Origin: a virus
Direction: 5' to 3' (one strand)
Virus genome (UHGV): UHGV-1354897
DNA: 61,496 bases
Numbering within the stretch: position 1 is the stretch's first letter; each line of letters begins with the position of its first letter. Below the pieces are notes generated by a model. It had not been told where the DNA came from. It saw nothing but the letters and a program-made list of their open reading frames with translations, and searched no databases. Positions 28,126 to 28,831 of the stretch are shown here, in pieces. The position numbers and the translations under genes are program-made.

Positions 28126-28831
28126 TTAGCAGCAGCCAGTCGGAGGAGTTGGAGGAGTTGGCAGTTTAAAGTTAACTAACTGCTCAACCTGATTGATCTT
28201 ACAAGTAAGACCAGCCGTCTGTGCCAACTGGGAGTTTGCAAAGCGAGCTTCCTGCAACTGAGATTTCAGGTCACAGATCAGAACTGCTTGCGCCTGCGCG
28301 TGCTGGTCACGGATTAGCGCACGGGTAGCTTCAGCTTGACGCTCGATGTTCAGGTTGGTTTCGCAGCAACACTTCTGAGCTTCTAACTGTGCTTGGAAAG
28401 AACGGGTGATGTTAGCTGCTTCGTTGCTACACAGAGCCGCGAGCACTTGGCTGGTGCTACCCTGAATTTGAGTGTTGAGACCGGCAAAGCCCTGAACGGA
28501 AGCCAGCATGTTCTGAGTGTTCTGCTGAGTGATGCCGTTATAGGTAGAAGCAGCGGAGCGCTCAACAGTCAGGTTAGTACCGTTCTGCCCCTGAATGGTC
28601 TGAAGAGTACCGTTGTTGATAGCTTGCAGAATTGCGTTGGTGTCAACAGAAGCTTGCACTTCCACCGGACCAGCGAAGTTACCGCGACCACCCCAACCAC
28701 CATTGCCGCCCCAACCGTTACCGATCCAGGAACCAATCAAACCACCGATTGCACCACCGATACCAGCCGCACCAGCTTCACCGCCGAAACCGTCGCCACC
28801 GAGATTAGTAGGTAAAAGAGTCATGTCAGAC
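28126..28831 (-). CDS. Gly-rich protein with coiled-coil region and C-terminal PTPPTPPTGCC tail
   Basis: GGAG RBS before ATG at 28831; N-terminal GGxGG/GNGWGG repeats; Gln/Ala-rich middle; CCC and terminal CC. Confidence 0.55.

Follow-up and report, generated by a model that had tools for sequence, protein, structure and literature searches.

Colicins Ia and E3 carry a long helical region after a glycine-rich N-terminus, T4 fibritin and gp57A are likewise built on long helices, and T4 Hoc, fibritin and the phi29 head fibres are dispensable parts of their virions. The lambda spanins Rz and Rz1 are dispensable under standard laboratory conditions. Here we describe a gene for a 235-residue protein on the minus strand of the viral genome UHGV-1354897 (61,496 nucleotides, in its entirety referred to as the window), which has been compared with each of these systems. 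The gene is real, conserved and phage-specific. Its family is already catalogued as a PHROG of unknown function and the gene itself is thus not new; the architecture, consisting of a glycine-zipper head, a long helical rod and conserved cysteine clusters, is without a characterised counterpart. Our preferred reading, tentative and held at a probability of about 0.35, is that the product is an abundant accessory phage protein which acts on the host envelope or its membranes at or after lysis.

The gene and the parts of its product are located as follows:

28126..28833, minus strand: coding sequence (CDS) of 235 amino acids, stop codon included; member of PHROG 9288 / VOG6476, start set by homolog N-termini and GGAG

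28842..28845, minus strand: Shine-Dalgarno sequence GGAG, 8 nt 5' of the ATG, inside an A/C-rich leader

28666..28833, minus strand: head, residues 1-56, MSDMTLLP and then the glycine-zipper/Trp-rich AGAAGIGGAIGGLIGSWIGNGWGGNGGWGG; from the alignment, with an AlphaFold2 predicted local distance difference test score (pLDDT) <50

28165..28641, minus strand: rod, residues 65-223, a single predicted helix of ~159 residues with 11-mer repeats in its N-terminal half and CCC/ATR/LCD/SQ.AQTA in its C-terminal half

28363..28371, minus strand: CCC triplet, Cys155-157, at least 90% conserved in the family

28129..28164, minus strand: C-terminal tail KLPTPPTPPTGCC, variable; found in Seuratvirus, Hanrivervirus, Segzyvirus and some Clostridia members, lacking in many others

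The open reading frame (ORF) runs on the minus strand from an ATG at 28833-28831 to a TAA stop at 28128-28126. An earlier interpretation made from the DNA letters alone, hereafter the sequence-only reading, had placed the gene at 28126-28831; its first coordinate holds, and its last misses the first base of the ATG by 2 nt. The protein starts with MSDMTLLPTNLGGDGFGG and ends in PTPPTPPTGCC. A mechanical ORF list gives a 278-residue, TTG-initiated frame (28126..28962), whereas the homologs begin at MSDM. Because GGAG stands 8 nt 5' of the ATG and the homologs share the MSDM start, this longer frame is best read as an artefact of ORF definition, and the 265-residue annotation in phage SD04 appears to be over-extended in the same way. 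The compositional features recognised in the sequence-only reading were all recovered: glycine-rich N-terminal repeats (GGDGFGG and GNGWGGNGGWGG, in residues 12-49), a body rich in Gln and Ala (25 Q, 28 A), the CCC triplet at residues 155-157 and the PTPPTPPTGCC terminus. A consensus scan also returned a terminator-like match within the CDS (28211-28231, minus strand), most likely a false positive given its weak T-run and the conserved ORF. The source belongs to the Seuratvirus-type coliphages (Queuovirinae); over 1.5 kb surrounding the gene it is 95-97% identical to ECP2304, SA126VB, CAjan and slur01.

The protein matches PHROG 9288 with E 4.4e-130 (residues 1-235 against profile positions 1-233 of 234), and the SA126VB ortholog is annotated as VOG6476 (pVOG). 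The membership motifs M.DM.LLP, G.LIGSWFGNG, QGFAGLNT, CCC...ATR and LCD are all present, and neither in its motifs nor in its genomic cassette does the protein differ from this family, to which CAjan gp21, aaroes gp76, eiAU P858_08 and the PY100-like X1_27 also belong. Searching a 5.8-billion-sequence database retrieved 169 homologs, every one of them named 'hypothetical' at its source. From 1.84 billion cluster representatives, exhaustive searching with HMMER recovered no more than 57, on which grounds the family is considered small. The homologous region was detected by tblastn in 220 phage records, the carriers including Seuratvirus, Nonagvirus, Sashavirus, Segzyvirus, Eiauvirus and PY100-like Yersinia myoviruses, the T1-like Hanrivervirus and Henuseptimavirus (and Tlsvirus, via a cassette partner, gene 3), as well as T5-like Epseptimaviruses at ~40% identity. 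No relative of the enterobacterial clade was encountered in a one-genome-per-species bacterial scan (185,579 species genomes), and no obvious homolog within the first 16 kb of the 9NA record. Metagenome-assembled genomes of gut Clostridia, Oscillospiraceae, Ruminococcus and Mollicutes harbour a divergent clade within prophage-like regions. Pfam assigned no domain to the 235-residue protein or to any of 31 family members, a literature search by accession and locus tag found no paper mentioning a member, and the papers on eiAU, Vid5, P281 and E. coli HS phages contain nothing on the gene. Consequently, the suggestion that the protein is of an undescribed type was borne out: it has no Pfam family, its PHROG is of unknown function, all homologs are 'hypothetical' and no member appears in the literature.

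In the family alignment the head opens with the short motif M-[SDE]-x-M-x-L-[LIV]-[PD], which reads MSDMTLLP in the source protein. The motif G.LIGSWFGNGWGG and the consensus AGLGGA.GALIGSWFGNG.GG characterise the remainder, in which G30, G34 and G40 reach at least 90% conservation; GGDGF is an insertion confined to Seuratvirus. Heads of the enterobacterial clade contain 4-8 overlapping glycine-zipper motifs of the form [GAS]xxxGxxxG (7 in the source head), and the N-terminal flank is always acidic, without Lys or Arg. Among members of this clade, the head's most hydrophobic 19-mer reaches a Kyte-Doolittle value of only 1.0-1.5, and the computed Hessa insertion cost amounts to +4 to +5 kcal/mol (+4.5 for the source), compared with -2.5 for the transmembrane domain of lambda Rz. 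The head is therefore not a Sec-type anchor. Conversely, the enterobacterial heads have Wimley-White interfacial energies of -4 to -7 kcal/mol (-6.0 for the source), against -2.1 for the HA2 fusion peptide, and members of the Clostridia clade have a short, very hydrophobic core at the same position (WWIIILFLFVF, Wimley-White energy ~ -12). It is mainly this gradient of hydrophobicity, from the enterobacterial to the Clostridia clade, that leads us to read the head as membrane-seeking. These computed interface properties render the envelope-related role put forward in the sequence-only reading plausible, albeit not in the colicin-like form discussed below.

A weak resemblance to influenza haemagglutinin may offer a lead on how such a head might work. 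When the whole-family profile was used as query, the 60 best-ranked PDB chains listed were all influenza haemagglutinin, mostly HA2, with a best E value of 0.005. The fusion peptide and helix A of HA2 are aligned opposite the head and the start of the rod, and 0 of 3000 region-preserving HA2 shuffles reached the real score. Both proteins possess a glycine-ridge/Trp head (G.LIGSWFGNGWGG here, GAIAGFIENGWEG in HA2), a glycine-rich spacer and a long helix, and according to the computed energies both heads are interface-seeking yet not transmembrane. Unlike HA2, however, the 235-residue protein lacks a C-terminal transmembrane anchor (it ends in PTPPTPPTGCC, with no hydrophobic segment), an HA1-like partner and heptad periodicity. 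The likeness is treated as an order-specific, motif-level resemblance and as a lead on the working mode only; it does not denote family membership, and the relation would at most be convergent.

The composition of the head is also reminiscent of colicin T-domains and class II microcins, and the sequence-only reading had compared the repeats to colicin translocation domains. The product could accordingly be pictured as a colicin- or microcin-like agent, freed at lysis and attacking or entering neighbouring cells via its glycine-rich head. In common with these bacteriocins it has a glycine-rich, partly hydrophobic N-terminus of low complexity; a conserved short motif is located in its disordered N-terminal region, and very high predicted expression combined with release at lysis would suit an extracellular agent. 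Still, the likeness proved to be compositional only. Neither the protein nor the 31 members gave a match to a colicin, pyocin or Cloacin family, colicin/Tol/Ton homology was rejected since Pfam scans as well as whole-protein and head-only PDB profiles found no bacteriocin, and the head-only profile produced no solved bacteriocin structure at E ≤ 10. By inspection, the N-terminus contains no TolB box, which we take to have the consensus DG[ST]GW (GGDGFGG is without Trp), and D-M-T-L-L falls outside the pattern [DE]-T-x-x-V that we assume for the TonB box. The protein has no receptor-binding or cytotoxic domain, only 12 residues being left after the helix, and its cassette neighbours are PHROGs of unknown function, with no immunity gene, leader or exporter. 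A double-glycine leader reading of MSDMTLLPTNLGG was discarded, as at most 11-13 residues precede the first GG where 15-30 are needed, and the hydrophobic positions are out of register. Likewise, a length of 235 residues and a cassette lacking an exporter do not agree with a class II microcin, and colicins are typically poor in Cys. In combination, these observations make a bacteriocin-like agent most improbable.

Beyond the head, AlphaFold2 models computed on 31 sequences predict one uninterrupted helix over residues 65-223, with pLDDT values of 85-94 at 140-210 and of ~60 at 65-130, and leave residues 1-64 disordered. The predicted product would hence be an elongated helix with a rod of ~24 nm; a fold search of BFVD with this model was uninformative, as expected for a single helix. 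The N-terminal half of the rod is rich in Gln, Asn and Thr and is organised in 11-residue units, QGFxGLNxxVx, with QGF spacings of 11, 11 and 22 residues in P0151 and of 22 and 22 in P0133. Its C-terminal half holds the CCC triplet, followed downstream by ...ATR.L, in which R171 is invariant and T170 and L173, like Q205 further on, are at least 90% conserved, and the additional family motifs LCD.KA and SQ.AQTA. The terminal cysteine cluster varies among members (GCC, GCCGC, NPCCIG, CGCNSCGC). The family-averaged hydrophobicity is best described by a period of 3.65, above the 95th percentile of permutations and driven by residues 65-140, and its power at the heptad period of 3.5 is essentially zero. 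A heptad register was therefore abandoned, no consistent register being found in the single sequence either. Consequently, the coiled-coil core proposed in the sequence-only reading stands as far as a long single helix is concerned, but not as a classical coiled coil: the period and the missing heptad power identify an 11/3-periodic amphipathic helix. As judged from sequence, such a helix would either join others in a straight or right-handed bundle or lie along a surface. Repeats of 11 residues with a period of 3.65-3.67 are shared with apolipoproteins, alpha-synuclein and perilipins, and with the hendecad coils of tetrabrachion; the polar face of the present protein differs in being Gln/Asn/Thr-rich rather than Lys-rich, and there is no sequence relationship. 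With spanins the protein has in common a helical rod of approximately the width of the periplasm, conserved Cys able to form intermolecular disulfides and a Pro-rich end, but it lacks a transmembrane anchor, a lipobox and any sequence similarity to Rz/Rz1. Identity as a spanin was dismissed on the absence of the first two and on the presence of canonical lysis genes elsewhere (SeppeHuegi).

The expression signals around the gene (gene 1 of a four-gene cassette) comprise:

28961..28988 (also placed at 28988-28969), minus strand: intrinsic terminator of the upstream tail-fibre gene, 8-bp stem with 6 GC pairs and a T-run; also annotated in SA126VB

28892..28919, minus strand: sigma-70-like promoter candidate, TTGTAA-16 nt-TATGCT, the combination being unique in the window

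28869..28884, minus strand: perfect palindrome GTAACCAGTTGGTTAC, a stem-loop beginning ~8 nt past the -10-like hexamer

28070..28102, minus strand: GC-rich hairpin and UUUU after the stop, between gene 1 and genes 2-4; annotated as a terminator in SA126VB

The promoter candidate was missed by a stricter consensus scan. The palindrome probably lies at the 5' end of the mRNA. The same upstream layout is present in aaroes, a T5-like phage, eiAU, N5822, X1 and Segz_1 (7 carriers together with the source), and the hairpin arms differ while remaining complementary (GTAAC/GTTAC, GTAGC/GCTAC, CATAAGCA/TGCTTATG, CCACC/GGTGG), a covariation which suggests a 5'-terminal mRNA stem-loop. The -10-like hexamer, the covarying hairpin and an A/C leader with a strong Shine-Dalgarno sequence look like an mRNA stabiliser or high-expression module that moves with the gene; Rfam returned no family within 26800-29100. 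The hairpin at 28070..28102 is a candidate weak terminator or attenuator. Together, the promoter-like site, the 5' stem-loop, the strong ribosome-binding site and the flanking terminators give the gene the sequence layout of an autonomously transcribed unit. Neither the TTTACA tandem motif upstream nor the promoter-like pattern recurs in the window, so that no temporal class can be assigned.

Codon usage is in line with strong expression. The codon adaptation index (CAI), calculated with the weights of Sharp & Li (1987), is 0.554 and ranks 3 of 52 window genes, compared with 0.548 for the putative major capsid gene and a window median of 0.31, and the frequency of optimal codons is 0.777 (rank 2 of 52). 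The cassette partners score 0.28-0.32 and the tail fibres 0.24-0.28. Thus, unlike its neighbours, the gene seems designed for very strong expression, and its product is predicted to be among the most abundant of the phage. The highest codon adaptation in the window, 0.58 and 0.57, is found at 14945-15757 and 10451-11320 on the plus strand; by position these genes seem to correspond to SeppeHuegi bas24_0048 (813 nt) and bas24_0052 (888 nt), both annotated as 'hypothetical protein', and their products may likewise be abundant.

A CAI equal to that of the major capsid gene is also what a decoration protein present at ~1:1 would show, and the product might be a virion-associated fibre or decoration, in the manner of the dispensable T4 and phi29 appendages mentioned above: a multi-chain rod held to capsid, neck or tail by one end, with disulfides formed after release. 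The gene is situated at the distal end of structural blocks, preceded by tail-fibre genes in Seuratvirus, Hanrivervirus, Eiauvirus and T5-like phages, by the coat gene in Segz_1 and by a tail-tube gene in a Firmicutes phage contig. The SHIN8 and Seurat deletions removed it along with the lateral tail fibre. The Gln/Asn/Thr/Gly-rich composition of the rod is typical of phage fibres, and the C-terminal GCC resembles the cystine knot that locks the trimers of collagen III. However, the promoter-like site and flanking terminators place the gene, moron-like, outside the structural operon, and in Yersinia X1 and the Clostridia prophages it is not beside structural genes. The hydrophobic glycine-zipper head contains no recognisable capsid- or tail-binding domain. 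Moreover, no annotated feature shown for the 220 phage records calls a homolog structural, and the CAjan record, as an indirect point, flags gp06 and gp09 as 'structural protein' but the ortholog gp21 as 'hypothetical'. The repeated losses described below likewise count indirectly against virion association. A virion component is on balance possible but unlikely.

Several sequenced phages have lost the gene. SeppeHuegi contains one in-frame amber stop at Gln83. In SHIN8 the N-terminus of the fibre is fused to the final 72 residues of the homolog, in Seurat (NC_027378 20427-20615) only the last 63 residues of gene 3 are left, fused under a 'tail fiber' CDS, and in P0121 genes 1 and 3 are fused at a shared IER tripeptide. 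This amounts to at least four independent losses, one amber and three deletions (SHIN8, Seurat and the P0121 phage), and because of these repeated losses the gene is regarded as accessory; it is dispensable for laboratory growth. The Salmonella phage vaffelhjerte (a T5-like Epseptimavirus; locus L004, 3794-4410) carries a decayed copy of gene 1 alone, with three stops and CCC changed to YCC, and among the tblastn records a number of other T5-like entries show two CDSs annotated here. The vaffelhjerte copy sits after a lateral-fibre-like gene, and its promoter and hairpin region is nearly the same as that of the Seuratvirus copy, which indicates past horizontal transfer of the expression unit.

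In the laboratory-propagated SHIN8 and Seurat the gene was removed together with the lateral fibre, itself dispensable on K-12. This raises the option of a helper for assembly or attachment of the lateral tail fibre, a fibritin- or gp57A-like chaperone or whisker needed on hosts with O-antigen; the long helices of those two proteins are comparable to the predicted rod. In four lineages the gene is immediately downstream of lateral tail-fibre genes, and in the source phage the fibre genes at 30941..33076 and 29006..30661 lie directly upstream. The position after the tail fibres noted in the sequence-only reading is thus correct for this phage but is not general, as the preceding gene is the coat gene in Segz_1 and not a structural one in X1. 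In X1, Segz_1 and the Clostridia prophages the cassette is away from fibre genes altogether. The sequence-only reading had set its proposal against homology to a tail-fibre assembly or structural family, and none was found. A tail-fibre chaperone of the Tfa, gp38 or gp57A kind was rejected on the lack of Pfam or PHROG homology and because an intramolecular chaperone, Peptidase_S74, is built into the adjacent fibre. The CAI of 0.55 against 0.24-0.28 for the fibres likewise speaks against a fibre helper, which we consider very unlikely. Concerning the fibre itself, the lateral fibre at 29006-33076 (minus strand) is split into products of 711 residues (phage_tail_N + Laminin_G_3) and 551 residues (Peptidase_S74 chaperone), with a 74-residue ORF (phrog_1361) in between that is also found in SA126VB, and CAjan and SeppeHuegi have a single fibre gene of ~1027 residues. 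The difference between the split and the single form is a host-range module swap.

On the preferred reading of an envelope-acting protein, the head would partition into the membrane interface without spanning the membrane, by analogy with viral fusion peptides and glycine-rich microcins. The 11/3-periodic helix would lie on the lipid surface or bundle into a straight multi-chain rod, and the Cys clusters (CCC, LCD and the terminal GCC) would form inter-chain disulfides in an oxidising compartment, either the periplasm once the holin has triggered or the medium once the cell has lysed. Envelope membranes would in consequence be perturbed, coated or cross-linked at or after lysis, to the benefit of the phage in natural hosts and without being needed on E. 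coli K-12.

A number of observations weigh against this reading. The protein has no signal peptide, lipobox or convincing transmembrane segment; access to the periplasm would therefore require holin lesions or lysis, which is pure inference. A complete endolysin/holin/i-spanin/o-spanin cassette is already available elsewhere in the genome, these genes being located at the other genome end in the close relative SeppeHuegi. The literature yielded no experimental data for any family member. With respect to the fusion-peptide analogy, hhalign gave the HA2 resemblance a probability of 1%, the Pfam haemagglutinin model matches none of the 31 members tested and a head-only profile run against PDB gives nothing; homology to HA2 was rejected, as the profile match at E 0.005 was confirmed by none of the three. 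Finally, the high codon adaptation would fit a stoichiometric virion decoration equally well, and the conserved Cys, taken together with a His-rich gene 2 and a Cys- and His-containing gene 3, could reflect metal binding in the cytoplasm.

The last point concerns the remainder of the cassette:

27686..28054, minus strand: gene 2, 122 amino acids, a variable His/Asp/Glu-rich N-terminal half and a conserved MazG-like helical C-terminal half

27140..27670, minus strand: gene 3, 176 amino acids, a small beta-rich domain with invariant H44, C65, H90 and H110

26869..27153, minus strand: gene 4, 94 amino acids, a small conserved protein

The cassette, phrog_9288 - phrog_9157 - phrog_8329 - phrog_7239, extends on the minus strand from 28833 down to 26869 with the 235-residue gene first, and all four families are of unknown function. 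Its order is conserved in Seuratvirus, aaroes, N5822, eiAU, Segz_1 and Yersinia X1, that is in at least six genera, including PY100-like myoviruses, and it is regarded as a mobile cassette of virulent enterobacterial phages. Its usual place is behind a lateral tail-fibre gene, Segz_1 (coat gene) and X1 (no structural gene) being exceptions. The helical half of gene 2 matches PDB 2p06 (AF_0060) at E 0.002 and, weakly, PRA-PH, consistent with a MazG-like fold, and its hypervariable tract reads HHHEHEKEEYKHAHSYARDHEH in the source and IHHHHHYHH in Segz_1. Gene 2 may thus encode a metal-binding MazG-like protein. In gene 3, C54 is likewise invariant in a six-phage alignment, and a search for structural neighbours found none.

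Strict synteny of the four genes in at least six genera, the poly-His/Asp/Glu tracts of gene 2 and the conserved His and Cys of gene 3 would be in agreement with a cytoplasmic metal-handling or scaffold system, in which the Cys of gene 1 bind metal and the rod acts as an abundant scaffold or sponge. The lack of an export signal and a head that is not a transmembrane segment point the same way. On the other hand, gene 1 has a CAI of 0.55 as opposed to ~0.3 for genes 2-4, and a terminator-like hairpin stands between it and them; members of its family also occur in Clostridia phages in which no homologs of genes 2-4 were detected, and T5-like phages once had gene 1 alone. Consecutive Cys on a helix furthermore face different directions, which suits cross-linking better than a single chelation site. 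A metal or scaffold function is accordingly judged distinctly unlikely.

In the Clostridia prophages the gene belongs to a cluster directly downstream of the endolysin, a setting that favours the envelope-acting reading, and no homology was detected between cassette genes 2-4 and the neighbours in this clade. At loci of the Clostridia type (L010, L012, L018-L020 and L022) a cluster of small genes recurs just after the endolysin with a divergent family member inside. It includes a GDCTVRAI protein (phrog_3754), a Gln/Pro/Met-rich protein (phrog_21718), Met/Gln-rich proteins of 70-84 residues, a 140-residue protein (phrog_20016) and an SprT-like HExxH protein, and some neighbours are Cys-rich (MSCNCEKCC...).

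A more specific form of the envelope-acting reading, which we regard as doubtful, would make the family a new class of hyper-expressed 'egress' protein, produced in capsid-like amounts and released at lysis into oxidising surroundings, whose heads insert into membrane interfaces and which polymerises through CCC/GCC to disrupt, coat or cross-link membranes or debris. If so, it would represent a third envelope-acting factor of the lysis stage beside spanins and disruptins or, alternatively, an occlusion or debris-neutralising matrix that protects the progeny, and its frequent loss in laboratory stocks would parallel that of lateral tail fibres. The SeppeHuegi amber allele together with SHIN8, Seurat and P0121 constitutes a set of ready-made natural mutants, making the function directly testable with phages from collections, and the promoter, 5' hairpin and A/C-rich leader may serve as a natural high-expression cassette. 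Sequenced enterobacterial phages that carry the family number well over 100. Several BASEL reference phages are among them, as are relatives of T1, 9g and PY100 and, with a pseudogene, of T5. Should the head of the protein be membrane-active, these phages would encode a new type of envelope-acting protein; should the product instead be a virion decoration or a metal scaffold, this would still explain why a gene of capsid-level codon adaptation persists in nature but disappears in laboratory stocks.

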